Below are positions 6,719-37,038 of a stretch of DNA of 64,000 nucleotides, piece by piece; the stretch's first letter is position 1, and the number at the start of each line of letters is the position of its first letter. A program made the translations under genes and the position numbers. The notes under the pieces were generated by a model. The model saw nothing but the letters and a program-made list of their open reading frames with translations, did not search any database and was not told the DNA's origin. This DNA is from an uncultured bacterium (lineage in GTDB: Bacteria > Oederibacteriota > Muellerivitia > Muellerivitales > Muellerivitaceae): the NCBI GenBank assembly GCA_964529445.1, contig CAZGWJ010000002.1:5182-69181 (forward strand), written 5' to 3'.

Positions 6719-7510
6719 TTGGACCTCCTGAAAACCCGGGAACTTTCCTATCGATATCCCGATCTCCCGTCCTTCCGGCTGGAGAACGTTTCGCTGTCTT
6801 TTGCCGGAGGATCCTTCACGGGTCTTTTGGGACCCAACGGTTCGGGGAAATCCACCCTCCTCAAACTGCTGGCCGGTTTCCTGAAACCGCGTTTCGGGAG
6901 CGTCCTCCTGGAAGGGAAGAACCTCCTCGGGATGGACGGAGGATGGCGGGCCCGAAGGATCGCCTTCGTGCCCCAATCCTTCCATGCGACCTTTCCTTTC
7001 ACCGCATGGGACCTGGTGCTCATGGGTCGTCATCCGCATCGGAACCGCTTTCGCCCCGTCGACGCGGAAGACCGGCGGATCTGCGAGGGGGCCTTGAAGC
7101 GTTGTGACGCCCTTCCTTTCAAGGACCGGCTATTGGAGGATCTTTCCGGCGGGGAGAGACAGCGCGTCCTTCTGGCCTCGGCCCTGGCCCAGCAACCCCG
7201 CATCCTTCTCCTGGACGAGCCCGCCACCTCCCTCGACTTGTCCCATCAGGTATCCCTCTTCGGCCTCCTGGGCGAACTCGTCAGGAAGGAAGGGCTTTGC
7301 GTGATCTGCGCCCTGCACGACCTGAACCAGGCGCTCCGCTCCTTCCCCCGCGTGGTGCTCCTGCAAGCGGGACGGGTGGCGGCGGACGGCATCCCCGCCA
7401 AGGTGTTGACCGGCCGGAATGTTCGCGCCATCTACGGGGTTTCGGTTCGTCGGGTCCCGGCTCCCGGTCGTTCCTTCCTGCTGATCCCCGGTAAGGTGGT
7501 TTCCCGATGA
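6719..7510 (+). CDS. ABC transporter ATP-binding protein, iron-siderophore/cobalamin (FecE/BtuD-like) subfamily
   Basis: Walker A GPNGSGKST, signature LSGGERQRV, Walker B LLLDEP. 4-nt overlap with the downstream permease. Confidence 0.85.
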   Translation: MDLLKTRELSYRYPDLPSFRLENVSLSFAGGSFTGLLGPNGSGKSTLLKLLAGFLKPRFGSVLLEGKNLLGMDGGWRARRIAFVPQSFHATFPFTAWDLVLMGRHPHRNRFRPVDAEDRRICEGALKRCDALPFKDRLLEDLSGGERQRVLLASALAQQPRILLLDEPATSLDLSHQVSLFGLLGELVRKEGLCVICALHDLNQALRSFPRVVLLQAGRVAADGIPAKVLTGRNVRAIYGVSVRRVPAPGRSFLLIPGKVVSR

Positions 7511-8508
7511 ACCGGAGAAAACCCCGCGCCGCCTTGCTGATCTCCTTCCTCCTGTTCATGGCGGCCCTCGGCGTCTGCCCGTTCGTGGGACCTGCCGATC
7601 TTTCCTGGCGGTCCCTGGTCCCCGGATCGACGCATCCCGATTCGGTCATCTTCTTCTCCGTGCGTCTTCCTCGCGTCCTGCTGGCCCTTCTGGCGGGTGC
7701 CGCCCTTTCCTGCGCCGGGGTCGTCTTCCAAACCGCGCTTCGGAACCCCTTGGCTTGCCCCTACACGCTCGGTGTGGCCGGTGGGGCTTCCCTGGGAGCC
7801 GTGGTCTCCTTTCTCATGCCCTGGCCCGCCGCCGTCGCGGGATTCCCCACCCTGACCCTGTCCTCGCTGGCCGGGTCGTTCTTCGCCATCCTTCTCGTCC
7901 TGGGCGTCTCCTCGTCCGTGCGTCCCCTTTCCGTTCCCACGCTGGTTCTCGGGGGCGTCACGGTCAATTTCCTGTTCAACGCCCTCGTCATCCTCCTTCA
8001 CCAAGCGGCGGATCCCGCCCAGGGAGCCTCGGTTCTTCACTGGCTCCTGGGAAGTCTTGACGCGGCAGACCCGCCCTCCGTCCTTCGATTGATCCTCGGG
8101 TTCGCGCCGGCGGTCATCCTGCTCCTCTTCATCGCACGCGACCTGGACCTCCTGGCGGCGGGGGAGGAGTTCGCCTCCTCGCGCGGCGTGGCGACCGCAC
8201 GGACCACGGCCCTCTCCCTGACGATTGCGTCCCTCTTGACCGGCCTCGTGGTGGCCCATGCGGGTCCGATCGGTTTCGTCGGCCTGCTCGTCCCCCACGC
8301 CCTGCGTCCGTTCACGGGACCCGGACATCGTCGCCTGCTCATCGCGTCGGGCCTTGCGGGGGGCGCGTTCCTCGCCTCCTGTGACGCCGTGGCGCGATCC
8401 ATCCTTTCCCCGGCGGAAGTGCCCGTGGGCGTGATCACGGCGCTCTTGGGAGGAACCGTCTTTCTGTTCCTGTTGTTCCGGATGAGGCGTCCCTTCTCCC
8501 TGCGATGA
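7507..8508 (+). CDS. FecCD-family ABC permease (BtuC/FepD-like)
   Basis: 333 aa with about 9 TM segments and typical FecCD motifs (LLVPH, ITALLGGTVFLFLL). Translationally coupled to the ATPase. Confidence 0.85.
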   Translation: MNRRKPRAALLISFLLFMAALGVCPFVGPADLSWRSLVPGSTHPDSVIFFSVRLPRVLLALLAGAALSCAGVVFQTALRNPLACPYTLGVAGGASLGAVVSFLMPWPAAVAGFPTLTLSSLAGSFFAILLVLGVSSSVRPLSVPTLVLGGVTVNFLFNALVILLHQAADPAQGASVLHWLLGSLDAADPPSVLRLILGFAPAVILLLFIARDLDLLAAGEEFASSRGVATARTTALSLTIASLLTGLVVAHAGPIGFVGLLVPHALRPFTGPGHRRLLIASGLAGGAFLASCDAVARSILSPAEVPVGVITALLGGTVFLFLLFRMRRPFSLR

Positions 8509-8849
8509 AAGCGACCCCCTCCACGATCGCGGTCCCTTCGAACGCGAACCCCCCTCGGCATCCCCGGGGAATCCTCCACCCGCCTTTTCCATCAACCTGG
8601 GAGTTATGAAAACCGGGCGATTCCTTTCCCGGGCAGGCACATTGCCTAATATTTGGAACAGCACATGTGGTGACGCCGAACAAATAATGTTCAAGACAAG
8701 TCTTTGTGCCAATAATCCCTAATATTGGTCGCGATTTTCAGGTATTAGAAAAATGGCCGTTTAGCGTTCAAATTGCAAAATAGTGGTATGCTCATTAAGG
8801 TAAACGTTGCCCCGTGGGATGTTTTCGAGCGTTTAATAAGGAGGATCTC

Positions 8850-9458
8850 ATGAGATTCCCGGCGAGGGTCGACAAGAAGAATCTGACTCGCGGTTTGCAT
8901 ACCTTGGGACGTCTCTGGTCGCGCGGCTTGGTCCCTGAAGATCTGGAACGCCATTTCATGCTCTATTGGTTCCTCATCTGCGGCGGCAACATCCTCGAGG
9001 CGGCTCGACGTCTCAAGATCCATCGCAACACCATCCAAGGATACTTCCTTCGCTTCCATTATTCGCGAAGGGCTGTGCGTCTCCGCCACGCCTGGATGCG
9101 CTTGAAAACGCGTTTCCCGCGCAAGGACGAGGCGCAACTCTTTCATGCCTTCTACGGTAAATACGGTTCGAAACCTTCCTTCGCAGGCGAGGAAACCCGA
9201 GGTCTCGTCTCACTCTGGTCCGCAGGTTTTCCCATGAAGGTCCTGAAAGCCCATTATCTGCTCTGGGCCTCCCGGAAAGGGAAGTCACGGGACTGGATCG
9301 AATCCCGTCTCGGTTTCTCCAACCGCCACCAATTGCGCATCTTCGGTTCGATCGGCCGTGCCGGCTCCCGCGAGAATTTCTGGTTGGCACCTCTGTCCCC
9401 GAAGCGCGACGAATGGTACCTGCCCCGCTATCGGAAGATCATCGCCCGCAAACGCTGA
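8850..9458 (+). CDS. hypothetical basic protein with Fis-type helix-turn-helix (putative regulator)
   Basis: Start moved to the ATG 6 nt after AAGGAGG. Putative HTH at GGNILEAARRLKIHRNTIQGYF. GC is about 56% against about 67% in neighbours. An AT-rich promoter region lies upstream. Confidence 0.5.
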   Translation: MRFPARVDKKNLTRGLHTLGRLWSRGLVPEDLERHFMLYWFLICGGNILEAARRLKIHRNTIQGYFLRFHYSRRAVRLRHAWMRLKTRFPRKDEAQLFHAFYGKYGSKPSFAGEETRGLVSLWSAGFPMKVLKAHYLLWASRKGKSRDWIESRLGFSNRHQLRIFGSIGRAGSRENFWLAPLSPKRDEWYLPRYRKIIARKR

Positions 9459-9569
9459 CGTCTCTTTCTCCCGCTTTTCGGCCCCCGGAATCCCCTTTCC
9501 GGGGGCCTCTTCTTTGGATGTCCTCCTTCCCGCTTGACTCCGTTCCTGCGCCGCCCTATGTTGTCCTGC

Positions 9570-9735
9570 GTTGTCACTCGAGGTGTTCGGGAAGCCGGTG
9601 AGATTCCGGCGCGGACCCGCCACTGTCAGGGACGTCGTATCGCGCGAAACCATCCCGCTCAGGGAGTCCACTGTCCCCCGTTGGGGACGGGAAGGACCGG
9701 CCAGCGCAGTCCCAAGCCAGGAGACCGGCCTCGAG
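9570..9735 (+). ncRNA. cobalamin (AdoCbl) riboswitch
   Basis: GGTGAGATTCCGG..CCCGCCACTGT core (GCCACTG at 9619-9625). GGGAAGG element. Near-consensus B12 box AAGCCAGGAGACCGGCC at 9714-9730. Confidence 0.85.
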
Positions 9736-9806
9736 GAAATGACCGTCCGTCCTCTCCGGGATCGAGGGGCGCGGTTCACCGGACCCTCGCTCCCGATGGC
9801 CCTTGA

Positions 9807-9842
9807 ACCCGTCCTCCGCCCGACTGGAGGCCGGGTTTTTTT
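9807..9842 (+). terminator. intrinsic terminator (expression platform of the riboswitch)
   Basis: CCCGTCCTCC-GCCCGACT-GGAGGCCGGG stem (10 bp, 1 mismatch) followed by TTTTTTT. It lies between the B12 box and the receptor RBS/ATG. Confidence 0.6.
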
Positions 9843-9867
9843 GTTGGCCTCGGGGAGTGGGCCGAAC

Positions 9868-11883
9868 ATGGGAATGAATCCGGGAATTCCGAGCCGTTGT
9901 TCGGCGCTTTCTCCTTTCCGTTTGGGCGTGTTCCGTCGGGTTCTCCTGCTTTTCCTCTTTCTCGTCCACACCTTCCTGCGCGCCGAGGGCGCCGACCCGT
10001 CGCAGGACGCCTTCCTTCTTCCCGAGATCCTCGTCACGACCTCTTCTCTTCGCTTGGCCCCCAATTCTTCCCTTACGGCTTCCGTTCTGGACCGGGATCG
10101 GCTCACGCGCCATCATCATCGCACGCTCGCCGACGCCCTCACGGAAAGTGCGGGCGTCGATACAGCCTCCCTGGGGGCTGTCGGGGCCGCCCAACTCGTT
10201 TCCCTGCGCGGTGCCTCCACCGAGCAGGTTCTCGTGCTCCTGGACGGGCATCGTTTGAACCCTCTCCAGGGCGGAGGAGCCGACCTTTCCCTCGTCCCTC
10301 TGGAATCACTCGAGCGGGTCGAGGTCATCCGCGGGTGTGCCCCGTCCCGCTACGGCTCGGAAGGCCTCGGTGGTGTCGTCAACCTGGTCTCTCACGGCCG
10401 GCAGGAGGGTGGGCGCTTCGATGCCGCGACGGGTTCCGGCGGCAGCGGCCGTCTTGCGGGGCGCTATCGTTTGCGCCTGGACCGCGACGGAGCCTGGCAC
10501 CTCCGCGTGACGGGCTCGCAGGGTGTCGGCGCGCCCTCCTTCTCCTACACCGATCCGGAACGTGGGACCGTCCGGGAACGCGACAACGTGGATTCCTTCG
10601 TGCGGATGGGCGGACTCTCCCTCTCGCATTCCCCGGCAAGCGGCGTCCGTTTCCCCGATCTCTCACTGGACCTCGACCGGATGATTTCACGCCGCGGCGC
10701 CCCGGGACCTTCGGAATTCCCCTCCCCCGGGGCCCGTCTCGAGGAAACCGGTGGTGGCGGCCGTCTCCAGGCATCCTTTCGGGGAAACGGGGAAGGGGAT
10801 TCGCCTCTCGCCCTCTCGATGTCTTTCACGCGCCGAGACGTTCATTACCGGGATCCTGCGGCTCTTCCCCAGGCGGTTGAAGACTCCCATGTCGGCGATC
10901 GTATCGAGTTCGCGGCCGATTCCGGAGCGGTCCTTGGGGATCGTTTCGTCCTCCACGCCGGTGCCGGCGCCTCGAACGAGAAGCTCGAGAGTACGACCGA
11001 TGGTCTTCGAAGGGATTCCAAGTGTTTCCTTTCCTTGGAACCCCGCCTTCTGTTCGGCCGCCATCCCGGGGTATCCCCGACCTCGGATTTCGCGGCCCGC
11101 CTGAGCCTGGAAGGCGGGGTCCGCGTCGAGACCTCCCGTCTATTCCCGGCCCGCGCGACGCCTCGCGCCGGGATCCTGCTCACCCTTCACCCTCCCACCC
11201 GCATGGCCCTGCGCGCGAACGCCGGTCTGGCCGTGCGGAACCCGTCCTTCGACGACCTCTTTTTTTCCGCGGCGGCTTTCGCGCGCGGCAATCCGGACCT
11301 CCGCCCTGAGCGGTCCCGGCTCGTCGATGCGGGCCTCCTCTGGTCCCCCGGTCCCCTGGCTCTTTCGTTCACGGCATTCCGACACGATGCCCGGGATCTC
11401 ATCCAATGGTCGCCCGATTTCTCCGGGCGCTGGCGGCCCCTGAACGTGTCGCGGGCCGTCGTGAAGGGGTTGGAAGGGGAGGGTTCCCTCTCCGTCCCCA
11501 TGTCCTTCGGGCTTCTCGGCATCCTGGACTCGTCCTTTACCTGGATGCAGGCGCGGGACCGGAGCGGGGACCGCAACCTGGATGGGAAGCTTCTGCCTCG
11601 CCGTCCGTCCTTCAAGAGCGGGTCGGGCTTGCGCTTGTCCTGGCGCCAACGGGTCGGAATGCACGTGCGTTCCCGGTTCGTCTCCTACCGCTGGCTGGAC
11701 GCCCCGAACGTCTCCTACCTGCCTGGTTACCTGACCATCCAGGCCGGTCTTTCCGTCGAACCGGCACAAGACCTTGTTTTCGCCTTCACGATCCACAACC
11801 TGACGGATGTCCAGGCCCGCGACCTGAACGAGTACCCTCTTCCCGGTCGCCAATGGGAGCTGAAAACATCCGTTGGATTCTGA
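9868..11883 (+). CDS. TonB-dependent outer-membrane receptor (BtuB-like; riboswitch-controlled)
   Basis: Start set after the riboswitch terminator at MGMNPG (RBS GGGGAGTGGG). Signal peptide FRRVLLLFLFLVHTFLRA. TonB box/plug region (VTTSSLRL..LVSLRGAST..LVLLDGHRLN). C-terminal beta-barrel ends in F. The ORF track extends 5' to 9571 through the riboswitch, but that part is unlikely to be coding. Confidence 0.8.
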   Translation: MGMNPGIPSRCSALSPFRLGVFRRVLLLFLFLVHTFLRAEGADPSQDAFLLPEILVTTSSLRLAPNSSLTASVLDRDRLTRHHHRTLADALTESAGVDTASLGAVGAAQLVSLRGASTEQVLVLLDGHRLNPLQGGGADLSLVPLESLERVEVIRGCAPSRYGSEGLGGVVNLVSHGRQEGGRFDAATGSGGSGRLAGRYRLRLDRDGAWHLRVTGSQGVGAPSFSYTDPERGTVRERDNVDSFVRMGGLSLSHSPASGVRFPDLSLDLDRMISRRGAPGPSEFPSPGARLEETGGGGRLQASFRGNGEGDSPLALSMSFTRRDVHYRDPAALPQAVEDSHVGDRIEFAADSGAVLGDRFVLHAGAGASNEKLESTTDGLRRDSKCFLSLEPRLLFGRHPGVSPTSDFAARLSLEGGVRVETSRLFPARATPRAGILLTLHPPTRMALRANAGLAVRNPSFDDLFFSAAAFARGNPDLRPERSRLVDAGLLWSPGPLALSFTAFRHDARDLIQWSPDFSGRWRPLNVSRAVVKGLEGEGSLSVPMSFGLLGILDSSFTWMQARDRSGDRNLDGKLLPRRPSFKSGSGLRLSWRQRVGMHVRSRFVSYRWLDAPNVSYLPGYLTIQAGLSVEPAQDLVFAFTIHNLTDVQARDLNEYPLPGRQWELKTSVGF

Positions 11884-11915
11884 ATGGATCATTCCTTCTT
11901 TCTCGGGAGTACGTC

Positions 11916-12977
11916 ATGATCAAACCTGCCAGGTCGTCCGATTCGGTTGTTGTGATTTTCCTCCTTTCTTTCGCGTTCCTTTTCCCGGCCTGTCAGACCG
12001 CTCCTCCCGCCTCCCCCGGATCCGGCCCCCTCACCCTCGACCATTACCTGGCCGTCGTGAACGGGAACGGCGGATATCTCTCCTTCGTGCTGCCGTCGAA
12101 CGGGATGCATTTCCCGGGACCCGCCGTCGGGGCCATCTATCCTCAGTCCGTGCGGTCCTGCGGAGAGCGCCTCGTGGTCGTGAATTCCTCCGGCAACAAC
12201 CTCCGCCTTTACGGCGCCCGCACGCCCAACGTGCCAGCCGGCACGATCCAATTCGAACCCGGCACGAATCCCGTGGAGATCGCCTTCGCCGACTGCGAAA
12301 CGGCGTATGTCTCCTGCTATGACGCCGGGCGGATCCTCAAGGTGGACATGGCCTCCCTGTCCGTGGCGGCCACGCTCGCTGTTCCGCCGGCCCAGGGATC
12401 GAACCCGGACGGCCTCGCGATCGCGGGCGGAAAACTGTACGTCGGACTGCCCGGCTTCGGTTCGGGCCGAACCGTAGGAATCGTGGACCTTTCATCCTTC
12501 TCCTTCACCGCCGCCTCGCCGGTGACCGTCGGCGAGAATTCGCAGACGTTGCTGGTCGCGGGAGGCCGTGTCCACGTTCTCTGCACCAGCGGATACAACC
12601 CCGATTGGACGAACAAACTGCAGGGAAGCGTCCATGTCATCGACCCCTCCACGGACCAGGTGGAGCGCATCGTGGACCTCACCGGATCCGATCCCGCCTT
12701 CGGAACGGCGGCGGAGAACGGCCGGGTTTTCGTGAGCGGATGGGAAGGGGGATTGATGTGCTACGACGCCGCAACGGGTATCGTGCTCCGCGGTCCCGGA
12801 AATCCCGTCGCACGCCCGGCATCCGGCGGATTGATGGGACTCGCCTCGAGCGGCTCACACCTCTGGGCCTGCGCCTTCATGGAGGATTCGATCCTGGAAT
12901 TCGATTCGGACACCTTTGCAGCGACCCGATCCTTTCCCGTGGGTTCACAGCCCGGAGTCCTGGCCTTCGTGCCGTGA
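11916..12977 (+). CDS. surface lipoprotein with YVTN/YncE-like beta-propeller repeats (BtuG-like by context)
   Basis: Start at MIKPARSS (RBS GGGAG). Lipobox LFPAC-Q. Repeated about 40-aa blades (LYVGLPGFGSGRTVGIVDL.., VHVLCTSGYN.., RVFVSGWEGG..). Immediately follows the receptor in the same orientation. Confidence 0.6.
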   Translation: MIKPARSSDSVVVIFLLSFAFLFPACQTAPPASPGSGPLTLDHYLAVVNGNGGYLSFVLPSNGMHFPGPAVGAIYPQSVRSCGERLVVVNSSGNNLRLYGARTPNVPAGTIQFEPGTNPVEIAFADCETAYVSCYDAGRILKVDMASLSVAATLAVPPAQGSNPDGLAIAGGKLYVGLPGFGSGRTVGIVDLSSFSFTAASPVTVGENSQTLLVAGGRVHVLCTSGYNPDWTNKLQGSVHVIDPSTDQVERIVDLTGSDPAFGTAAENGRVFVSGWEGGLMCYDAATGIVLRGPGNPVARPASGGLMGLASSGSHLWACAFMEDSILEFDSDTFAATRSFPVGSQPGVLAFVP

Positions 12978-13019
12978 TGGTTTTCACCGCCTCTTATCCG
13001 GAACAAGCGCGTCAAAAAA

Positions 13020-13560
13020 AATCAAGGAGCAAATTTTTCAAATCCTCGCGCTTTTGAAGGGAAAGAAAAATTTTTCTTCCCGCTCTTTCGGGTAAAATTT
13101 CCTTGACTTCGAATCCAAAAAGCTTAAAAGGGTATGGCAAGATACAAAACAATGACTTTTCGCCGTGGATACGCGTTTCGCGGAAGTGACGATCAACGGG
13201 TTTCTTGTCGGGCCCACCGCGGCGACCTCGCGAACCAACACTCATAAAACTTTCCGAATCCGTGTCTTGCGGCCGCGTGTGGATTTGTGGATGAACGGTT
13301 CTTTTTTCTCCACCCACCGAGGCTTGGGCGGCATCCCTTTGTTTTTCAGCAGGGAGGCCCCGCGCGTCCCCTTTGTTGCGGGGTCGGCGGATCAGCCCAC
13401 CGAGAGCGAACAACTTATCCACAGGCTCATCCACAGGTGTGGAAAAGCCGCCCGTGAGGGGACGTTTCGCAGGGTTCTTCGGGATAGGTCGTTCATGGGG
13501 ATAAGCCGGGGATAAACCAACCCAAACCCCCGGGAATCCTTTTGTTTTGGCCGTTTTTAG
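13020..13560. other. oriC-type region: AT-rich DNA-unwinding element plus DnaA-box cluster upstream of dnaA
   Basis: AT-rich 13020-13160. DnaA boxes: TTATCCACA perfect at about 13424, tCATCCACA, TGTGGAaaa, TGTGGATtt, TGTGGATga at about 13285-13305. Strand switch of flanking genes (rpmH operon minus, dnaA plus). Confidence 0.6.
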
Positions 13561-13587
13561 GTGTTTTCCCGTCGGGGAGGCTTGTGG

Positions 13588-15018
13588 ATGACCGGCTCAA
13601 CGGACGTCTGGAACCGCTGCCTGGAGGCCCTTCAAAAGGACCTGAATCGGCAAAGTTTCGAGACATGGTTCAAGCCCACCAAGGGTTCCCTGGTGGACGG
13701 GAATACCCTCCAGGTCCTCGTTCCCAACGAGTTCTTCAGGGATTGGATCCGCGATCATTACAGCTGTGATATCCAGAAGGCCGTTCGGGACAGTCATCCC
13801 GAGCAATTGGAGATCCGTTTCGAAGTCGACCCCTCCCTTCGCACCCAGGAAAACCCCGGAACCGCCGCTCCCGATTCCCCGGACCTCTTGTCCGAGACCA
13901 AGAGCGGGGCTCCAGTTGCTGTTCCTGCCCAGGTTGAACTGACCTTCATCGAAAAACCCGTCTCAACCCGCGGAACCAAGGCCCATGAATTCGTACTGAA
14001 TCCCAAATTCGCCTTCGACAACTTCGTGGTGGGCAACAGCAACCGTTTCGCCCACGCCGCATCCCTAGCGGTAGCGGAGTCGCCGGGCAAGTCCTACAAC
14101 CCCTTGTTCATCTATGGGGGGGTCGGCTTGGGCAAGACGCATCTCCTGCAAGCCATCGGCAATTACGCCCGCCAGCAGAACCCCAACGTCAAGATCCTCT
14201 ATATCTCGTCCGAGCGGTTCCTGAACGATTTCATCGAGTCCATCCAGTCCGGAAAAAGCCTTGATTTCCGCAACAAATACCGCACCGTGGACCTCCTTCT
14301 CATCGACGATATCCAGTTCTGGGAGGGGAAAGAATCCACGCAGGAAGAATTTTTCCACACCTTCAACGTGCTTTACGAGGCTGGAAAGCAGATCGTCGCC
14401 ACCTCGGATAGTCATCCGAAGGAGATCCGCCTGGAGGAGCGCCTGAAAAACCGTTTCGAGATGGGGCTGGTGACGGACATCCAGGAACCCGATCTCGAGA
14501 CCCGGGTGGCCATCCTTCGAAAGAAGGCCGCCGGCGCGGGTGCGGTGGTCCCTAACGAGGTAATGACGTATATCGCCCACCACGTGAAATCCAACATCCG
14601 CGAGCTGGAAGGTTCCATGCTCCGGGTCCTGGCCTTCGCCTCCCTGACCAAGCAGGAGATCACCCTGGACGCCATCAAGGAGGTCCTGAAGGACTCGCTG
14701 CCCTCCGACGACCGCCGGGTGTCCATCGAGACCATCCAGCGGCTGGTGGCGGAGCGTTACAATTGCAAGTTCTTCGATATGCGCTCCAGGAAACGCACCA
14801 AATCGGTGGCGTTCCCCCGTCAGGTCGCCATGTACCTCTCCCGGGAATTGACCCCCCATTCGCTGTCCGAGATCGGGGCGGCTTTCGGGGGCAAGGATCA
14901 CACCACCATCATTCACGCCTACGACAAGATCGACGATCTTTCTTCCACCGATCCCACCCTCGCCGCCGAGATCCAGTCCCTCCGGAAAACCCTTACCGAG
15001 GGTTCTTCCCACGCATAA
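13588..15018 (+). CDS. dnaA: chromosomal replication initiator DnaA
   Basis: Start at MTGSTDVW (RBS GGGAGG). Domain I, AAA+ core (GGVGLGKTHLL, Walker B LLIDDIQF), domain IV (LSEIGAAFGGKDHTTIIHA). Confidence 0.93.
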   Translation: MTGSTDVWNRCLEALQKDLNRQSFETWFKPTKGSLVDGNTLQVLVPNEFFRDWIRDHYSCDIQKAVRDSHPEQLEIRFEVDPSLRTQENPGTAAPDSPDLLSETKSGAPVAVPAQVELTFIEKPVSTRGTKAHEFVLNPKFAFDNFVVGNSNRFAHAASLAVAESPGKSYNPLFIYGGVGLGKTHLLQAIGNYARQQNPNVKILYISSERFLNDFIESIQSGKSLDFRNKYRTVDLLLIDDIQFWEGKESTQEEFFHTFNVLYEAGKQIVATSDSHPKEIRLEERLKNRFEMGLVTDIQEPDLETRVAILRKKAAGAGAVVPNEVMTYIAHHVKSNIRELEGSMLRVLAFASLTKQEITLDAIKEVLKDSLPSDDRRVSIETIQRLVAERYNCKFFDMRSRKRTKSVAFPRQVAMYLSRELTPHSLSEIGAAFGGKDHTTIIHAYDKIDDLSSTDPTLAAEIQSLRKTLTEGSSHA

Positions 15019-21144: not shown

Positions 21145-23025
21145 TCATTTGAAGACGATCGCCTTCACTTCCAGGACGCCGTTGCCCTGGTTCCCCGGGA
21201 TATAGAAGTCCGCGTTCGATATGGCCTGCAGGTCCAATATATCGTTGCCCTTCTGGTTCCCCCAGACGCCCCGCTTCTGCAATTCCTGAAGGTTGATGCG
21301 GTAGGTCTCCCATTTCCCCGTGCCCACGAGCGCCGGGAATTCCCAGGACTCCCCGTCGGCGCCGAGCTTCGATTCGTACGAGGTCTTTCCGGGTTCCGCA
21401 TTCCCCGATTCACCGATGAAAAAGAAGCACTTCAAATCCTTCGGGAGCCGGGCCCGGATCACCACGGTGTCGCAACCGGCGAGATCGTCGGTTCCCTTCA
21501 CTGAGGGCAGGGTGGCCCCGCAGCCCCAGCCGGTGCCGGTCGAGCAGGCGAGGGAAAGAAGGCCGTTCGCGTGAGCGGGAACGATGTGCCCGCCGCTCCC
21601 CGTGTCGCCCCAGGGATGGACGGTGGAGTTCTCCCGCGGCTCGAAAAAGGCACGCGGAGCGGGCTTTGATCCGTCCGATCTCGTGCGCAAGGAGGGTTCC
21701 TTCGGACCGATGAAGGATACCGGCAAGGGCGAGGCGGCGCGAGCGTGGAGGGAGGATGCTTCCCGGTTCAGCGAGCGGTGCGCCTTCGTGAGGAGTTCGT
21801 ACGGACGGTCGTGGATGTCCACCAGGCCGTAGTTGGAATCCTCCCCGTCGAACCGGCCTTGGGGCGATTCGTCGGCCCAGGAGAACCAGTGAAGACCCAC
21901 GACATAGGGAAGGTCGAGACTTTGGATGGCATAACGGGTGAAATGCTCGGCCCGGTCCTTCTGGGTGGGGACCGTCACGTCGGCGCCCTTCGTGTTGGGG
22001 TCGCCGGACTGGTTCTCCATGGCGCGGAAGGAATATTCGGTGATGAGGATCGGTTTATCCGTACGAACGTGGTAGTTGTCCAATAGTTGCCGATCGATGT
22101 TCGCCGACTTGGCGTAGTGGTTCACGCTCACCACGTCGCACCACTTGCCGCAGGCCTCGACCACCTCCCAGGGATTCTCGCCCGCGAAACGCACACCCAT
22201 CACCAGGTGGTTCGGATCGGCTTCCTTCACCGCCCGGACGCAGACCTCGAAGAACCGGTCGGCGACTTTTCCCGTCCAGGCCAGGGCGTCCGCTCGCTGT
22301 CGGCGGGTCCTCGGCACGAGGGTGATCGGCGCATCGAGGGCCTCGAAGCAGGAGAGGCGCGTTCCCCAAACCGCGTTGAGATCCGCGATCTTCCCCTGGT
22401 ATCTCTCCGCAAAGAAAGCACGAAGGGCCAGCTTGTTCGGGTCGTCGGGCCCCCACAGGGCGTATTTCTCAAGGAGCGTTTTCTGGCCCGGATCCTTCCA
22501 TCCATATTCTCCCCACCAGGGGATTTCGTTGTCTAGGAAGTACCCGATGAGGAGCGCATCGTTCCGAGTCTTTTCGACGGCACGGGCCTTGGCCTTCACG
22601 ACGCTTTCGAATTGTTCGGAGAAAACCGCGTCGAGACGGGTCGCACCCTCGCCCGGCGAGAGATGGAGGATGACGCAGTAGGGCGTCTTTCGCCGGTAGA
22701 GATCGGGATGGCACCAGGCGCCCATCGTGTTGAAGCCCCAGGTGTTAAGTCGTTTCTCGACGCTCCGGAACCATTTTTCCGGATCGCCGCCGTACTGGTT
22801 GGGGATGGGGTTGTAAAAGGTCGGGTTGGGGGCCCGCCAGGCGCCGTCCGAGATGGCGTTGACGCCCATGGAGAGGAAGGGTTTTCCGTCGGGGGAAAAG
22901 AGCCAGGCGCGACCGTCCTTCCAACCCACCTTGAAGAAATCGCTTTTCTCCTGGGCCTGCATTGGTAAGTGAAGAAAAGCCAACAACAGGAGAAGGGGCC
23001 CTGCGAGGATTCGATCGTTTTTCAT
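21145..23025 (-). CDS. secreted clan GH-A (TIM-barrel) glycoside hydrolase with C-terminal beta-sandwich domain
   Basis: Start moved to MKNDRILAGPLLLLLAFLHLPMQAQ (signal peptide). Acid/base LDNEIPWW and nucleophile ILITEYS motifs. The exact family cannot be determined from sequence inspection (GH5/42/50-like). Confidence 0.6.
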   Translation of the reverse strand: MKNDRILAGPLLLLLAFLHLPMQAQEKSDFFKVGWKDGRAWLFSPDGKPFLSMGVNAISDGAWRAPNPTFYNPIPNQYGGDPEKWFRSVEKRLNTWGFNTMGAWCHPDLYRRKTPYCVILHLSPGEGATRLDAVFSEQFESVVKAKARAVEKTRNDALLIGYFLDNEIPWWGEYGWKDPGQKTLLEKYALWGPDDPNKLALRAFFAERYQGKIADLNAVWGTRLSCFEALDAPITLVPRTRRQRADALAWTGKVADRFFEVCVRAVKEADPNHLVMGVRFAGENPWEVVEACGKWCDVVSVNHYAKSANIDRQLLDNYHVRTDKPILITEYSFRAMENQSGDPNTKGADVTVPTQKDRAEHFTRYAIQSLDLPYVVGLHWFSWADESPQGRFDGEDSNYGLVDIHDRPYELLTKAHRSLNREASSLHARAASPLPVSFIGPKEPSLRTRSDGSKPAPRAFFEPRENSTVHPWGDTGSGGHIVPAHANGLLSLACSTGTGWGCGATLPSVKGTDDLAGCDTVVIRARLPKDLKCFFFIGESGNAEPGKTSYESKLGADGESWEFPALVGTGKWETYRINLQELQKRGVWGNQKGNDILDLQAISNADFYIPGNQGNGVLEVKAIVFK

Positions 23026-23151
23026 AGGGATATGATGACATATTTTTCGGCAGGTCGTGGGCGGTAAAGATTTCCGGGCCCTTTTGTTCTCATCCCGGGT
23101 GGTTTTAACTATCATTTCATCGAGTCGAATCTCCCGTTCAGGGGCCCATCC

Positions 23152-24018
23152 ATGCCCTCCTCGAAGCGGTCCAGAGAACCCATTTCCCAGGAGACCGTTC
23201 GCGTCCTCCATCCCGCGGACCTTCCCGGTGTCGAAGCCCTCCATGTCACCCATGCGGACCGTCTCTGGACCGTCTATCACACCATGTACAGTTTCTGTTC
23301 CGTTCTTGATTCGGGCGACGGGCACAGCGAGTGGTCCTGTCGCGGCAGGATCCATCAGGCCTGGACGGGACGCACGATGCTGGTCCAGCCGGGCGATCTT
23401 CACGTCACTCGCAGGATCACGCATCCCGGGAACTTCGAGGTCCTCCAGATCGACGAGACCCGGGTCCGGCGTTCCGCGACCGAAATGGGTTTTCCCTCCG
23501 GAGGAATGAACCTGAAGGCGAACCAGACCGACAGCCCCGTCCTCTTCGAGTCCCTACGGGCCATGCACCGGAGCCTGGCCGGGGAGGCCACAACCCTGGA
23601 GAGGCAATCCCGCCTCGAGTACTGCCTTTCCGTCCTCCTTCTGGAGCACATGGAAAGGACCCCGCTGAGGCCGGGTCCGAGCGAGGCGCTCGCCGTCCGC
23701 AAGGCGCGGGATTACTTGAACGATCGTTGGTCGGAGAATGTCACGCTCGATGAACTGAGCGAAGCATCGGGATTGGGCCGTTTTCATCTTCTTCGTTGCT
23801 TCAAGGAGGAGACCGGTCTGCCGCCCCACGCCTATCAGATGAGGATCCGGGTCGCCAAGGTCCGGGAGTTCCTGCGGGCGGGGATGAGCATATCGGGATC
23901 GGCGGCCCGGGCGGGTTTCGCGGACACGGCCCATTGTTGCAGGCACTTCAAGCGGGTCCTGAACGTTTCGCCTTCCATCTATCGTCGTGGCTCCGATCGC
24001 GGTGTACCGGAAGCCTGA
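23152..24018 (+). CDS. AraC-family transcriptional regulator
   Basis: C-terminal AraC HTH (RFHLLRCFKEETGLPPHAYQMRIRVAKVREFL). Divergent to the GH gene. Confidence 0.85.
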   Translation: MPSSKRSREPISQETVRVLHPADLPGVEALHVTHADRLWTVYHTMYSFCSVLDSGDGHSEWSCRGRIHQAWTGRTMLVQPGDLHVTRRITHPGNFEVLQIDETRVRRSATEMGFPSGGMNLKANQTDSPVLFESLRAMHRSLAGEATTLERQSRLEYCLSVLLLEHMERTPLRPGPSEALAVRKARDYLNDRWSENVTLDELSEASGLGRFHLLRCFKEETGLPPHAYQMRIRVAKVREFLRAGMSISGSAARAGFADTAHCCRHFKRVLNVSPSIYRRGSDRGVPEA

Positions 24019-27011: not shown

Positions 27012-28466
27012 TTGGAAACCATGAGAACACGTACGACTTTTCTTCTCCTGATCCTCTCCATTCTTCCCGGGATCCTTCAAGCGGCGCCTTTGGCCCTTCG
27101 CGTGGTCGGCAACAAGGTCTACGATTCCAACGACTGCCTGATCCGCTTGAAGGGTGTCAACATCCCCTCGATGGAATGGCGGGACACCGGGGAAGGACCT
27201 GCGGGCAGCGGGGTTTATCCCATCACCGTGACCGTGAACGAGGTCCTGACGAATTGGGGGACCAACATCGTCCGCCTGCCCATGAGCCAGGATTTCTGGT
27301 TCGGCTACACCAACTCGAAGGACGGTTCGGTCAACATGAACACGTACCGCGGGATCGTGGATTCCATCGTGAACATGTGCTCCGCCGCAAACGCCTACGT
27401 CCTTTTGGACCTTCATTGGTCGGGGACGGGATCCTGGGGCACTGCGACCGACATCTGGGGCATGCCCGACAACAACGCGGTCACGTTCTGGACCGATGTG
27501 GCGACGCGCTACGCCAACAACCCCGCCGTCCTTTTCGATCTCTACAACGAACCGCACGGAACGTCCTGGAACATCTGGAGGGACGGGGGCACTTTCGGTT
27601 CCTTCAATACGCCCGGAATGCAGGCTCTCCTGAACGCCGTTCGCGCAACCGGAGCGATGAACGCCGTGGTGGTGGGGGGGCTCGATTGGGCCTATGACCT
27701 GCGGGGGATCGTGCCCGGTTATGCGGGACGAACCAACGGCTGGGCGCTCACCGAAAGCGGCGGCAACGGCCTCATTTACGCCACCCATATCTATCCCTGG
27801 AAGGCAACGCCCTGGGACAACTACATCACCGTCCTCAAGAGCTACCACCCCATCCTGGTGGGGGAAGTGGGACAGGAAAGGGATGGCCTGCGACAGTTCA
27901 CCGGAGGGATCGTGTCCGTCCTGAATTGGATGGATTTGCACCAGTACCATTGGACCGGGTGGAGCATGCACACGGGCGCCAGCCCTTGCATGATCTCGGA
28001 CTGGACCTTCTCTCCGACCACCTATGAGGGCGTCGACATGAAAGCGCGCCTGCTCGCCACCTCGTCGGGCCAGGGATGCGCCACCCCCACTCCCACCGCG
28101 ACGCCCACGAGCACTCCCACGCCCTGCTACGTGGCCTCCGCGGTCCCCTGCTCTCCCACCCCGACCTGGACACCGACCCCCGGTAACGGCGTGGAGGATA
28201 TCGTCCTTTACCCCAATCCGGTCCAAGAGGGCGAGACGGTGATGTTCTGGGTGAACTTCCCCAAGCCCGCGGCGGAATTAACCGTGCGCTTCTACACGCC
28301 ATCCTCCCGCCTTGTGGCCACGAAGCGCCTGACCCAGGTCGCTTCGGGCGGATATACCTTGACGCTCCGCGACGACAAGGAACGGCTTCTGGCCAACGGG
28401 GTCTATTACCTGAAGTTCTCCACCACCACGAAGGAACGGGTCTGCAAACTGCTGGTATTGCGGTAG
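27012..28466 (+). CDS. secreted GH5 endoglucanase-like hydrolase with PT-linker and T9SS C-terminal sorting domain
   Basis: Signal peptide. GH5 motifs (LYNEPHG acid/base). TPTPTATPTSTPTP linker. C-terminal about 90 aa beginning YPNPV and ending basic and hydrophobic (T9SS CTD type A). Confidence 0.75.
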   Translation: METMRTRTTFLLLILSILPGILQAAPLALRVVGNKVYDSNDCLIRLKGVNIPSMEWRDTGEGPAGSGVYPITVTVNEVLTNWGTNIVRLPMSQDFWFGYTNSKDGSVNMNTYRGIVDSIVNMCSAANAYVLLDLHWSGTGSWGTATDIWGMPDNNAVTFWTDVATRYANNPAVLFDLYNEPHGTSWNIWRDGGTFGSFNTPGMQALLNAVRATGAMNAVVVGGLDWAYDLRGIVPGYAGRTNGWALTESGGNGLIYATHIYPWKATPWDNYITVLKSYHPILVGEVGQERDGLRQFTGGIVSVLNWMDLHQYHWTGWSMHTGASPCMISDWTFSPTTYEGVDMKARLLATSSGQGCATPTPTATPTSTPTPCYVASAVPCSPTPTWTPTPGNGVEDIVLYPNPVQEGETVMFWVNFPKPAAELTVRFYTPSSRLVATKRLTQVASGGYTLTLRDDKERLLANGVYYLKFSTTTKERVCKLLVLR

Positions 28467-34875: not shown

Positions 34876-35007
34876 TGTATCGGCCGCGATGCATATTGCA
34901 AGCCGGGAGCCTTCCTTCGTTGCGAGGGTTCCCGTCGTCTCAGGTTCCGGGACTCCGTGATACAATGGCCTTCCGTTCGTTCCCCAAGTCTGTTCCTAGG
35001 GATCCTC

Positions 35008-37038
35008 ATGGCGCGCGTATCGGTGCAGGAAGGCCGGGGTCTTCTCCTCGGCGACTCCCCCATCCCCCTGGTCAGCGGGACCCTCCATTATTGGCGCCAT
35101 CCTCCCGCCGATTGGCCGCGGCTCCTCAAGGCCGTGAAGGGCCTGGGATACCCGATTGTCGAAACCTACATCCCCTGGGGCGTGCACGAGGCAGGGAGGC
35201 GTTCCTTCGATTTCGGGGGACTGGATCCCTCCCGGAATCTCGAGGCGTTCATTGCCGCCGTGAAGAAGTCGGGGCTGAAACTGATCGTGCGCCCTGGTCC
35301 CCACATCAACGCGGAACTCACGGATTTCGGCTATCCCCGCCGCATCGTCGCCGACCCGGAAATCATTGCCCGCGAGGCCCACGGCGGTTCGGCCGTCTAT
35401 GGGGAGGGACCCCGGCCTTTCGGCCTTCCCAGCTATGCGTCGGAGAAGTTTTACGCGGAGGTCGCGTTTTGGTTCGACGCCCTGGCGCCCATCCTGCGCC
35501 GACATCTCCATCCGGAGGGGCCCATCGTGGCCGTCCAGGTGGACAACGAGACCGGGTATTTCTTCCGGACCGGCGCCTACGCGATGGATTACCACCCTGA
35601 TTCCATTCGATGGTACCGCCGGTTCCTGGAAGGAAGATACGGGGACGTGAAGGCGCTCAACGCGACCTACGGCACCGATCACCCCGACTTCTCCTGCGTG
35701 GAACCGCCCCGACGATATCGGGGCAGGGATCTGGCGGATCTGCCGTACTACCTGGATTGGCAGATCTACAAGGAGTGGCAGATCCTCGAATGCCTGAAAC
35801 GACTGAAAGGGATGTGGATCGAGCGGGGCGTGATGGGCGTGCCCTTCACCCAGAACTATTTCGGATCCACCTCGACTCCCTATGACGTGATCGGGACGGA
35901 AGAGGACGGGTCGGGGTTGGATGTGGCGGGACTGGACGACTACTCGCGGCGGGAATCCTACCGGGACCTGGCGTGGAAATGCCTCTACCTCTCCGGATCC
36001 TCGCGTCTTCCCTATATTCCCGAGTTCGGCGCGGGGAGCTGGGCGTTCCCCCCCTGTTCCTTCCACATGGACGAGCGGGACACGGCGTTCACCGCGCCCC
36101 TGCTCTTCATGTTCGGTCTCAAGGCCGTGAACCATTACATGCTGGTCGAGCGCGACCGCTGGATGGGAAGCCCCCTGTCGGCGCGGGGCGAGGCGAGAAA
36201 ACCGCTCGCGGCAATCCATCGGGACCTCAACGCGTTCTTGAAGACCTCCCGCATCCTGGAGGCGGACCTGCAGGCCGACCTCCTGGTGCTGGCCTCCCGC
36301 GACGCGGAACGCCTCGGCAAGGTCCTCGTCTTCGCCGACGATCATCCCTGCCTGCCCTGGCCCGCCGAGGCGGGCCGGGCCGATGCGCCACCCCCCTTCA
36401 CCGTACCGCCCCACCAGGACCACGCCTCCCGGCTGAGGCGTTGGTTCGATTGGGTGCTGGATCGGCGCCTGCCCATGAAAACTTCTGACACGAACCTGCC
36501 CGAGGCGAAGTGGCGCGGGTACAAGGCCGTCGTCTTGCCGACCTACGAACTCATGGGCGCCGAGGCACAGGAGGCCCTGCGATGCTATGTGATGGAGGGA
36601 GGATCAGCCCTCCTGGGCCCCTCGCTTCCCGGCGCGGACGAACGAGGCCGGCCACTTTCGGTGTTTCCGGTTTACCATCTCGGGAAGCCGATGGCCGTCG
36701 GGAAAGGCCGAATCCTCGTGCTCGAGGAATGGGATGAGGCCGCCGCGTTCGATTTCCTGGCCGCCGCGGGCGTGACCCCGATCCTCCCGGATATTCCAAC
36801 GGGGATTCTCGCAACCCGGTTCACGGCACCCGGTCGTGTCATTCATTTCCTGGCGAATCCCTCGGACGGGGAGCGCGTCCTTCCGCGATTTGGCCCGAGG
36901 GGCGGTGTGGACTGGAACCCGCTTTGGGGCGCCGGGAAGCCATGGAAGGCGGGGAAGGAATGGACCCTCGCTCCCTGGAGCGTCGCGTGTTTCGAGAGTC
37001 CGTCCGAAATGCCCGGATCGGAGGCAACCGGGGAATGA
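35008..37038 (+). CDS. GH35-family beta-galactosidase
   Basis: Start placed at MARVSVQ. The ORF track starts at 34957. LHYWRHPPADWPRLLKAVKGLGYPIVETYIPWGVHE..RPGPHINAELTDFGYP closely matches the GH35 N-terminal catalytic domain. No signal peptide. Confidence 0.75.
   Translation: MARVSVQEGRGLLLGDSPIPLVSGTLHYWRHPPADWPRLLKAVKGLGYPIVETYIPWGVHEAGRRSFDFGGLDPSRNLEAFIAAVKKSGLKLIVRPGPHINAELTDFGYPRRIVADPEIIAREAHGGSAVYGEGPRPFGLPSYASEKFYAEVAFWFDALAPILRRHLHPEGPIVAVQVDNETGYFFRTGAYAMDYHPDSIRWYRRFLEGRYGDVKALNATYGTDHPDFSCVEPPRRYRGRDLADLPYYLDWQIYKEWQILECLKRLKGMWIERGVMGVPFTQNYFGSTSTPYDVIGTEEDGSGLDVAGLDDYSRRESYRDLAWKCLYLSGSSRLPYIPEFGAGSWAFPPCSFHMDERDTAFTAPLLFMFGLKAVNHYMLVERDRWMGSPLSARGEARKPLAAIHRDLNAFLKTSRILEADLQADLLVLASRDAERLGKVLVFADDHPCLPWPAEAGRADAPPPFTVPPHQDHASRLRRWFDWVLDRRLPMKTSDTNLPEAKWRGYKAVVLPTYELMGAEAQEALRCYVMEGGSALLGPSLPGADERGRPLSVFPVYHLGKPMAVGKGRILVLEEWDEAAAFDFLAAAGVTPILPDIPTGILATRFTAPGRVIHFLANPSDGERVLPRFGPRGGVDWNPLWGAGKPWKAGKEWTLAPWSVACFESPSEMPGSEATGE

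Follow-up and report, generated by a model that had tools for sequence, protein, structure and literature searches.

The 64-kb stretch of DNA analysed here, hereafter the window, has a G+C content of 61.9%. It harbours a cobalamin riboswitch followed by the genes of a BtuB-like TonB-dependent outer-membrane transporter and of a β-propeller lipoprotein, the latter gene sitting between the receptor gene and oriC. The identity of DnaA and DnaN (about 70-75%) places the host in candidate division FCPU426, an uncultured candidate phylum of soil and peat, and not in Bacteroidota. The preliminary description had spoken of another FCB lineage, but FCPU426 lies outside the FCB group in NCBI, and membership of that group is unproven. 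Likewise, the T9SS-type proteins ascribed to the window come down to one sub-threshold C-terminal domain (19.8 bits versus a cutoff of 23).

With regard to the leader, an Rfam scan identified a cobalamin riboswitch (RF00174) at positions 9564-9747 of the plus strand, with 88.1 bits versus a gathering score of 31.5 and an E-value of 2e-20. The alignment covers the full length of the model (positions 1-189 of 189) and begins at 9564, and not at 9570 as first described. The GCCACTG core (9619-9625) and the B12 box AAGCCAGGAGACCGGCC (9714-9730) are both present, and both motifs are invariant in nine of nine aligned riboswitches; the orthologous riboswitch of locus L006, a relative with 69% identity, reaches 84.7 bits. 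Rfam gave no other match in the 64-kb window, and no second copy was found there with our own riboswitch model, the region upstream of btuD included. A sigma-70-like promoter at 9534-9562 (+), composed of TTGACT, a 17-nt spacer and TATGTT (9 out of 12 consensus matches), ends 2 nt 5' of the aptamer. In an alignment with the L006 leader, the -35 element TTGACT is unchanged and the -10 element of L006 reads TAATGT. The segment in the window would act as the promoter of the unit.

The 3' end of the aptamer lies 120 nt 5' of the receptor start codon on the same strand, and this interval contains a putative intrinsic terminator (9805-9842, +), in which a hairpin (9805-9838) runs into a U7 tract (9836-9842) located 26 nt 5' of that codon. 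The stem consists of a G+C-rich CCCG/CGGG core plus CCUCC(G)/(U)GGAGG and encloses a 6-nt loop. The preliminary description of a 10-bp stem plus U7 holds for the stem and the U tract, but the stem carries one internal U-C mismatch. The hairpin has a predicted energy of -20.2 kcal/mol (z -3.6), and one of 200 shuffled sequences folds equally well. A simple terminator scan of positions 9000-14000 returned six sites, the core of this hairpin among them, versus 6.5 expected by chance, so that the case for a terminator rests on its position, its energy and the hairpin found at the same position in the L006 leader, where the stem differs in sequence and the U tract (UUUUCAU) is weaker. Unconstrained folding of the entire 312-nt leader was uninformative (z -0.29). 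A candidate anti-terminator seen by eye, 9684-9692 (GGGGACGGG) pairing with 9808-9816, was dropped because L006 keeps only about 4 bp of it, and no anti-terminator was identified in the leader.

In the mechanism that we propose, binding of AdoCbl to the aptamer would let the terminator form and end transcription 5' of the receptor gene, and masking of the ribosome-binding site may add to termination. When B12 is scarce, the receptor and lipoprotein genes would be co-transcribed. As here, a cobalamin riboswitch governs the TonB-dependent B12 receptor gene btuB in E. coli, where it works mainly at translation. The two systems differ in that the E. coli one has no lipoprotein partner and that a canonical terminator follows the aptamer in the window.

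The receptor gene (9868-11883, +), preceded by a GGGGAG ribosome-binding site (9852-9857), codes for a 671-residue protein with Plug (PF07715, 1.8e-21) and barrel (PF00593, 2.9e-35) domains. Its best NCBIfam models are TonB-B12 (TIGR01779) and NF007926, although with 125.1 bits versus a cutoff of 599.7 and 112 bits versus 836, respectively, it stays far below the level required for equivalog assignment. Among proteins of solved structure, E. coli BtuB (1.8e-19) and B. thetaiotaomicron BtuB2 (1.3e-15) are the best sequence matches. A TonB-box-like EILVTT was noticed by eye near residue 53. Further upstream on the same strand are the genes of a btuD-like ATPase (6719-7510; Pfam ABC_tran, 5e-30) and a btuC-like permease (7507-8508; FecCD, 2e-78), the latter having BtuC as best NCBIfam model with 192 bits, below the cutoff. 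Neither Rfam nor our own model detected a riboswitch upstream of these genes, which, judged from neighbourhood alone, probably encode the inner-membrane partner of the receptor unit.

The lipoprotein gene (11916-12977, +) starts 32 nt after the receptor gene, the direct succession that had been described, and is preceded by a GGGAG ribosome-binding site (11905-11909). The 353-residue product begins with a lipoprotein signal peptide (MIKPARSSDSVVVIFLLSFAFLFPAC, with Cys26) and continues with a linker rich in Pro, Gly and Ser. Although FPAC is not a typical lipobox, its Cys is invariant in nine of nine relatives. The residues after Cys26, QTAPPASPGSGP, include no acidic one and thus lack an export signal of the Bacteroidota type; the acidic lipoprotein export motif has been defined only for Bacteroidota. 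Structure prediction yields a seven-bladed β-propeller of the YVTN type (pLDDT 92.3), as expected from the earlier reading of the blades, and Foldseek places BtuG1, BtuG2 or BtuG3 at all ranks from 2 to 17 (1e-16 to 8e-15), before E-values drop to 8e-13.

Scans of the lipoprotein against Pfam and NCBIfam returned only sub-threshold Kelch, PQQ and YVTN matches, that to the YVTN repeat TIGR02276 reaching 17.5 bits versus a cutoff of 27.85, and neither DUF5074 (PF16819), the Pfam family to which BtuG1-like proteins do show a match, nor YNCE (PF21783) matched at E <= 0.1. E. coli YncE and the YNCE-like propellers of PF21783 are seven-bladed members of the same superfamily, and NCBI labels BtuG chains as YncE family proteins. 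The fold match to the YVTN propeller of the Methanosarcina mazei surface layer (PDB 1L0Q) is excellent, but the latter, part of an archaeal S-layer in fusion with PKD domains, has no lipid anchor, transporter partner or B12 link.

Homology to BtuG1, BtuG2 and BtuG3 is remote but detectable over the full length. A family profile built without the Pfam DUF5074 members aligned with a BtuG profile at a probability of 100% (hhalign, E 6e-54, 324 columns) and matched BtuG1 at 1.5e-31. Among 5.8 billion sequences, phmmer linked the lipoprotein to the BtuG1-like protein P0004 (E 7e-5), which in turn matches BtuG1 at 9e-36. The BtuG-like character proposed in the preliminary description thus stands, in the sense of a predicted remote homologue. 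Seven-bladed propellers include many enzymes, lactonases and lyases among them, and an enzyme acting on corrinoids or a B12-related substrate could be envisaged; this appears highly improbable, since the homology is to BtuG and YVTN proteins and not to lactonases (12% identity), there is no sign of a catalytic metal or nucleophile motif, and the strict adjacency to a TonB receptor gene is typical of binding partners.

Compared with the BtuB-BtuG system of B. thetaiotaomicron (BtuG1/2/3; PDB 8BLW, 8BM0, 8P97 and 3DSM), the lipoprotein shares only 15-19% identity, has no PF16819 match or Bacteroidota export signal, and belongs to a host from FCPU426. In BtuG2, B12 is contacted by E55, G56, F58, Q93, N107, S131, R135, W149, W194, S195, Y196, Q219, Y239, W272, Y316 and Y335. 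By sequence alignment, as opposed to coordinates, about 7 of these 16 positions are identical or similar in the lipoprotein (Q77, S91, N118, F181, N208, Y227 and F321), and four of them (Q77, S91, N118 and N208) fall on motifs common to YVTN blades in general. The Arg, Trp149, Ser195, Trp272 and Tyr316 of BtuG2 are replaced by V120, D136, G182, S258 and G305, so that the contact residues as a set are not conserved. Furthermore, a 5-residue deletion removes the blade-1 Glu-Gly-x-Phe loop (Glu55, Gly56 and Phe58 within NEGNF), and a second blade-1 segment, F..N...LGD, is deleted as well. Because this loop is absent, the binding site must differ from that of BtuG.

The loss of BtuG-specific contacts and of the blade-1 loop would fit a propeller that the transporter requires as its partner or lid but that has no high-affinity B12 binding of its own. 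Such a propeller may stabilise or gate the barrel, deal with another form of the substrate, e.g. protein-bound or incomplete corrinoids, or, in relatives without a riboswitch, take another ligand such as a siderophore. The last variant has a counterpart in XusA-XusB of Bacteroides, likewise a TonB-dependent transporter with a surface propeller lipoprotein catching a small-molecule substrate, but with a xenosiderophore as ligand and other regulation; XusB is found among the fold matches, although as a much weaker one (Foldseek 8e-11, TM 0.61, rank 41). We regard a partner or lid of this kind, without high-affinity binding, as unlikely. BtuG1 and BtuG2 themselves have only about 60% of their B12 contacts in common, which makes the missing residues weak evidence, and the nearest characterised homologues, the BtuG proteins, all bind B12 with picomolar affinity, on the face meeting the barrel.

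The family around the lipoprotein became visible by exhaustive HMMER search, whereas a word-indexed homologue search yielded no more than three close relatives plus two weak bridges to DUF5074. It comprises at least 238 clusters (50% identity) with E <= 1e-10; among the 64 nearest relatives, 34 match PF21783 and 19 match PF16819. As judged from these sequence comparisons, the lipoprotein belongs to a large sister family of BtuG that has no functional annotation. A scan of 185,579 species representatives with the four closest sequences, which covers close relatives only, revealed none.

A census of gene order was based on 79 metagenome loci, of which the 36 with at least 4.8 kb (about 5 kb) of upstream sequence were used for counts. 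A TonB receptor gene on the same strand precedes the propeller gene in 33 of the 36, directly in 31; a cobalamin riboswitch is found in 22 (about 60%), and at least one of the two elements in all 36. Both a riboswitch and an adjacent receptor occur in 20 loci of the census. All 11 riboswitch matches rechecked with Rfam were confirmed. Co-occurrence of the homologues with riboswitches and receptors is far above chance, and none of the three outcomes that the preliminary description had named as speaking against it (no RF00174 match, a non-propeller fold or no similarity to BtuG, no co-occurrence) was encountered. The order riboswitch, receptor, propeller recurs in L006, L038 and L120, that of receptor and propeller in L009, L036 and L007/8, and in L012 the propeller gene is directly preceded by a riboswitch. 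On the other hand, 14 of the 36 loci lack a riboswitch over a distance of 5 kb, so that specificity for B12 may not hold for the family. The tighter linkage to the receptor than to the riboswitch, and the receptor-propeller pair without riboswitch in L118 from Cloacimonadota, also fit the partner or lid without high-affinity binding considered above, but the cobalamin riboswitch that stands over the pair both in the window and in L006 argues against it.

Gene order also bears on whether co-transcription is meaningful at all. L026 and L034, the closest FCPU426 relatives with a syntenic riboswitch-receptor-oriC unit, have no propeller, as would be expected if a generic surface or cell-envelope propeller had come to lie incidentally between the receptor gene and oriC. 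That idea is barely credible in view of the census, where dozens of unrelated contigs, with G+C contents from 36 to 73%, again have the propeller gene next to a receptor gene, and of the close spacing of the two genes, with gaps of 32 nt here and 16 nt in L006 and an overlap in L009.

The side of the membrane on which the propeller works has to be considered as well. A search of the 64 kb by tblastn with one BtuF-like query found no BtuF-like binding-protein gene, while FCPU426 relatives have one beside btuCD, and no recognisable surface-export signal follows Cys26. Both observations would be explained by a lipoprotein that faces the periplasm, with its anchor either in the inner membrane or in the inner leaflet of the outer one, and that takes the place of BtuF in carrying B12 on from the receptor towards the BtuCD-like importer. 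However, a T9SS sorting domain is present on some members of the family; these must be extracellular, which speaks for an action of the family beyond the outer membrane. A BtuF-like gene follows the propeller gene in several loci, and six loci (L045, L056, L066, L067, L098 and L107) encode both proteins; moreover, the BtuF gene of the present host may simply be elsewhere in the genome, and we know of no propeller that docks on BtuC-type permeases. A periplasmic shuttle is therefore very unlikely.

Taken as a whole, the locus is probably a B12-repressed, BtuB/BtuG-like unit for corrinoid capture and import at the outer membrane. The lipoprotein would be lipidated at Cys26, tethered at the outer membrane by a linker of about 17 residues and exposed at the surface, where it would bind B12. 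It would cap the transporter, as in BtuB-BtuG complexes, catch the corrinoid on one propeller face and pass it on to the barrel for import driven by TonB, and the btuCD-like ABC neighbours would then move it across the inner membrane. From the sequence, a leader of 280 nt and a soluble propeller construct about 330 residues long can be derived.

In the literature, BtuG is stated to be exclusive to Bacteroidetes, in agreement with the earlier remark that a btuB gene followed by a propeller lipoprotein gene is described only for BtuG, and lipoprotein-assisted B12 capture by BtuB-BtuG is presented as a speciality of Bacteroidetes that accounts for how well they do in the gut. We found no literature on BtuG-like proteins or on BtuG outside Bacteroidota. 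The present data suggest for the lid-plus-transporter design a distribution much wider than the one described so far. More tentatively, with the balance tipping slightly to the negative, we can propose that this phylum-spanning sister family, with its lipoprotein and T9SS-tailed forms, serves environmental diderms such as FCPU426 and Cloacimonadota as the general lid with which TonB-dependent B12 transporters capture corrinoids, the construction of its site differing from that in Bacteroides BtuG, and that BtuG is one specialised branch and not a Bacteroidetes invention.

Few microbes make corrinoids and most need them, and the mode of B12 capture matters as corrinoid uptake shapes microbial communities. 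If the proposal is true, a large family now labelled only as hypothetical or YVTN family proteins would receive a function. It would also be a natural source of variants of a picomolar B12 binder in which the site is constructed differently, useful for studies of corrinoid selectivity and as B12-capture reagents, and lipoprotein-assisted B12 capture would be a general outer-membrane strategy extending beyond Bacteroidetes.

The leader of the unit carries a full-length cobalamin riboswitch aptamer on the forward strand (9564-9747), which matches RF00174 over model positions 1-189 (88.1 bits, gathering score 31.5, E 2e-20); when all 64 kb of the window were compared with Rfam, it was the sole match. 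The two motifs quoted in the preliminary description, namely the GCCACTG core (9619-9625) and the B12 box AAGCCAGGAGACCGGCC (9714-9730), both lie within this aptamer. A sigma-70-like site (TTGACT, 17 nt, TATGTT), whose last base is 9562, lies two bases 5' of the aptamer, and because the preceding HTH gene (8814-9458) possesses its own terminator-like hairpin (9480-9507), the riboswitch appears to head a separate transcription unit. This HTH gene, located directly 5' of the riboswitch unit, codes for a product of 214 aa in which a PucR-type HTH is recognised (HTH_30, 27.8 bits); its synteny with the riboswitch-receptor unit recurs in loci of four relatives (L006, L026, L027 and L034), and it adjoins the propeller gene, on the opposite strand, in a fifth (L009). 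The product may regulate the locus or bind DNA near the origin.

Downstream of the aptamer, a G+C-rich hairpin (9805-9838) runs into seven T residues (9836-9842), in agreement with the proposed terminator of a 10-bp stem followed by U7, the stem measuring about 10 bp with one internal U-C mismatch. Its folding energy of -20.2 kcal/mol (z -3.6) was equalled by one of 200 shuffles. Terminator-like sites in the region do not exceed chance (6 observed vs 6.5 expected), and the case for a terminator is therefore built on position, energy and conservation. Alignment with the leader of L006, the contig of a relative with 69% identity, shows no change in the -35 hexamer, in the aptamer core or in a 21-nt block 3' of P1, and at the terminator position L006 harbours a hairpin whose stem differs in sequence and whose U tract (UUUUCAU) is weaker; as these leaders represent two distinct sequences only, the conservation is suggestive and does not amount to proven covariation. 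A conserved anti-terminator was sought in the leader and none was identified. When 9740-9870 is folded to minimum energy, 9786-9801 also pairs with the ribosome-binding region (9847-9862), so that an additional translational control is possible. Binding of AdoCbl to the aptamer would favour the terminator, making the leader an OFF switch, and under low B12 the receptor and lipoprotein genes would both be transcribed.

The two genes are arranged in an operon as initially described, the TonB receptor ORF (9868-11883, 671 aa) starting 26 nt 3' of the U tract and the propeller lipoprotein ORF (11916-12977, 353 aa) following after a 32-nt gap with a GGGAG ribosome-binding site. The receptor harbours Plug (1.8e-21) and TonB-dependent barrel (2.9e-35) domains, and among NCBIfam models it is matched best by the B12 receptors TIGR01779 and NF007926, although it scores far under the equivalog cutoffs (125 bits vs 600). 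Among proteins of solved structure, the closest to it in sequence is E. coli BtuB (1.8e-19), followed by CirA and then by B. thetaiotaomicron BtuB2 and BtuB3 (about 1e-15). These matches identify it as a BtuB-like transporter, not as a certified BtuB equivalog.

With regard to the lipoprotein, the signal peptide ends in FPAC (Cys26), the Cys being invariant in the nine nearest relatives, and is followed by a Pro/Gly/Ser-rich stretch. Pfam and NCBIfam scans returned no model above threshold. The AlphaFold2 model, computed from a 64-sequence alignment (pLDDT 92.3, pTM 0.87), predicts 27 strands forming seven four-stranded blades. The top Foldseek match in the PDB is the archaeal S-layer YVTN propeller 1L0Q (8e-18), and places 2 to 17 are all occupied by BtuG1, BtuG2 or BtuG3 (1e-16 to 8e-15, TM 0.72-0.77), after which a gap to 8e-13 is observed. 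Sequence comparison singles BtuG out. Within a database of 5.8 billion proteins, phmmer links the lipoprotein to the related protein P0004 (E 7e-5). P0004 itself matches BtuG1 (9e-36), and the lipoprotein alone matches BtuG1 chains weakly (about 1e-3). When a profile of the lipoprotein and its eight nearest relatives, all devoid of Pfam DUF5074, was aligned with a profile of BtuG1, BtuG3 and nine relatives of the NEGNF type, the alignment covered 324 columns from signal peptide to last blade (probability 100%, E 6e-54). Taken together, the bridge through P0004, the BtuG1 matches and the profile alignment indicate that the lipoprotein is a genuine, remote and full-length homologue of BtuG, and the similarity anticipated in the preliminary description is thereby borne out. 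That the propeller is an enzyme is very improbable.

The contact residues of BtuG2, taken from published papers, were mapped to the window protein through sequence alignments. Glu55, Gly56 and Phe58 are lost in a five-residue deletion directly after N49. Gln93 and Tyr239 correspond to Q77 and Y227, Asn107 to S91, Ser131 to N118 and the Arg neighbouring it to V120, Trp149 to D136, and the Trp194-Ser195-Tyr196 stretch to F181, G182 and S183. Gln219 is replaced by N208, the sole invariant residue across 64 relatives, Trp272 (Ala in BtuG3) by S258, Tyr316 by G305 and Tyr335 by F321. About 7 of the 16 positions are thus identical or similar, and several of these belong to a generic G-x-N/S-P blade motif also present in 1L0Q and are therefore no proof of a B12 site. 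A further segment of blade 1, bearing the BtuG-family signature F..N...LGD, is missing as well, and the window protein does not carry the conserved set of BtuG B12 contacts; it also lacks the acidic export signal that follows the cysteine in Bacteroidota lipoproteins. It has been published that only about 60% of contacts are common to BtuG1 and BtuG2. The lack of these contacts weakens the notion that the protein is a BtuG more than the notion that it works like one. A propeller that partners the transporter with another specificity, or with no binding at all, appears unlikely.

Close relatives of the lipoprotein number three among 5.8 billion clustered proteins (one at 100% and two at 69% identity). 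Searched exhaustively with HMMER, 1.84 billion representatives yielded 1125 proteins at E <= 1e-3, of which 238 at E <= 1e-10. Only about eight of the best 150 family members possess the BtuG-type NEGNF loop; the remaining ones share the signature V-x-N-G-x-x-E-T-L-S, Y-V-V-N-S-G, V-G-x-N-P-Q and H-V-V-C-T-G-N/D-Y. Two forms occur, namely lipoproteins of about 340-360 aa and longer, secreted proteins (about 410-440 aa) that end in FlgD-Ig or T9SS sorting tails. Where names are given, they read 'hypothetical protein' or 'YVTN family beta-propeller protein', and one named member derives from a Candidatus Cloacimonadota MAG.

The genomic company of the family is recurrent. The 18-kb contig L006 shares the window's gene order (ABC ATPase, FecCD permease, HTH protein, TonB receptor, propeller, dnaA, dnaN), with an RF00174 match of 84.7 bits at the equivalent position. 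Among more distant related proteins, P0007 (31% identity) follows a receptor 42% identical to that of the window on a contig ending before the leader; P0006 and P0011 have the end of a receptor gene directly 5', and P0009 an RF00174 match (98.8 bits). P0013, on a 4.6-Mb contig, closes the series RF00174 (104 bits), T9SS-tailed propeller-like gene, receptor and uncharacterised gene, and the T9SS-tailed P0023 displays the order riboswitch, receptor, propeller. In Cloacimonadota, P0021 is preceded by a btuD-like ATPase and a receptor, without riboswitch.

A census with the motif HV[VL]CTG[DN]Y, which samples one part of the family, retrieved 79 metagenome loci; cobalamin riboswitches were searched with a covariance model built from nine riboswitches, and receptors by tblastn. 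Some of the metagenome contigs may be Bacteroidota, and near-duplicates are included (L097, L101 and L105 score identically). Among the 36 loci with at least 4.8 kb upstream, a same-strand receptor lies upstream in 33 (adjacent in 31), a same-strand cobalamin riboswitch in 22, and one or the other in all 36. Of the 26 riboswitch-positive loci, 20 have the riboswitch 2.4-3.0 kb 5' of the propeller, the receptor lying between the two; five have it about 0.4 kb upstream, immediately before the propeller, and one (L046) has it 4.8 kb upstream, where further sequence separates receptor and propeller. An Rfam recheck confirmed 11 of 11 riboswitches (64.8-114 bits), and Rfam scans of the 14 negative loci of the 36 revealed no riboswitch of any kind. 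Cobalamin riboswitches are present in a handful of copies per genome by our estimate, yet occur in about 60% of these operons, which is far from chance. The co-occurrence expected in the preliminary description is thus found, and a merely incidental co-transcription of receptor and propeller is scarcely credible. BtuF-like binding-protein genes lie 3' of the propeller in several loci, riboswitch-negative ones included. In L038 (1126-7071), a single cobalamin riboswitch (104 bits) stands at the front of an operon of four genes in which a T9SS-tailed propeller and a lipoprotein propeller flank a TonB receptor and a 501-aa protein (weak BNR and FlgD-Ig matches); it may be a multi-component relay reminiscent of Bacteroides BtuG/H/J/K sets. 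The riboswitch-less L075 and L109 (about 100-2700) encode an 840-880-aa membrane protein ahead of a receptor and a T9SS-tailed propeller, with trpS and scpAB after them.

The lipoprotein would be anchored at the outer membrane and face outward, a topology supported by the T9SS-tailed family members, which are necessarily extracellular. It would cap the receptor, capture the corrinoid and hand it over, as in the published BtuB-BtuG 'pedal bin' complexes, and the btuCD-like ABC genes (6719-8508) would complete import. These genes have no riboswitch of their own in the window; in eight FCPU426 relatives (L013, L017, L020, L021, L024, L030, L031 and L033), a strong cobalamin riboswitch (99-131 bits) lies 5' of the dnaA-adjacent btuD. 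A tblastn search of the 64-kb window with one BtuF-like query (from L045) found no BtuF-like gene, which lends something to the quite improbable alternative of the propeller being a periplasmic BtuF substitute. BtuF-like genes sit beside btuCD in L016, L017, L018, L023 and L032, and the binding protein of the present system may be encoded elsewhere or missing.

As for the host, the window DnaN is 89% identical to that of L006 and 69-75% identical to those of 23 species representatives, mostly labelled 'candidate division FCPU426', whose DnaA proteins share 67-72% identity with the window's. A host outside Bacteroidota is well supported. The proposed assignment to another FCB lineage is corrected to FCPU426, which NCBI places under 'Bacteria candidate phyla', outside the FCB group; membership of that group is unproven. 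The G+C content of the window is 61.9%. The T9SS-type proteins noted at first come down to one sorting domain, which belongs to a GH5 protein and stays under threshold (19.8 bits vs 23). The propeller is absent from all 23 FCPU426 dnaN loci. Two of them (L026 and L034) display the syntenic HTH gene, riboswitch, receptor, oriC and dnaA, with a receptor about 30% identical and no propeller, so that the receptor-propeller pair behaves as a cassette of some FCPU426 lineages only and looks swapped in. The L026 receptor is seemingly split in two ORFs.

Between the propeller gene and dnaA, the segment 12978-13560 has a G+C content of 0.52 vs 0.62 for the window and contains five of its nine DnaA-box-like 9-mers (TTATCCACA, at most one mismatch), a sixth lying at 13583. 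It is probably oriC, and the B12 uptake operon would thus end at the replication origin, in an mnmE-jag-yidC-yidD/rnpA ... dnaA-dnaN neighbourhood. The window also encodes a protein of 1492 aa that combines PL14 and GH18 (chitinase-like) domains, a GH5 cellulase whose T9SS/FlgD-Ig-like C-terminal domain is sub-threshold, a GH35/42-like protein whose top NCBIfam model, exo-beta-D-glucosaminidase, is far under cutoff, and a protein of 759 aa whose sole match, to GH42, is borderline and under threshold (jointly 54053-58531, 27012-28466, 34957-37038 and 21145-23424). These large glycan-degrading enzymes suggest a polysaccharide-degrading lifestyle.

The 2018 discovery paper and a 2024 structural preprint describe BtuG as exclusive to Bacteroidetes, in line with the preliminary statement that the arrangement of btuB and a propeller lipoprotein was described only for Bacteroides BtuG. 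A September 2026 review likewise gives BtuG in Bacteroidetes only, the spread to other phyla that it discusses concerning BtuH and BtuJ, not BtuG, and full-text literature searches for 'BtuG-like' or BtuG in other phyla found nothing. With the lineage corrected, the original interpretation stands, B12 binding being putative. A riboswitch-controlled BtuB with a propeller lipoprotein is an already known kind of system, which would here operate in a new phylum, and the propeller partner comes from a sister family of BtuG that is distinct, carries no functional annotation and has a differently built putative binding face.
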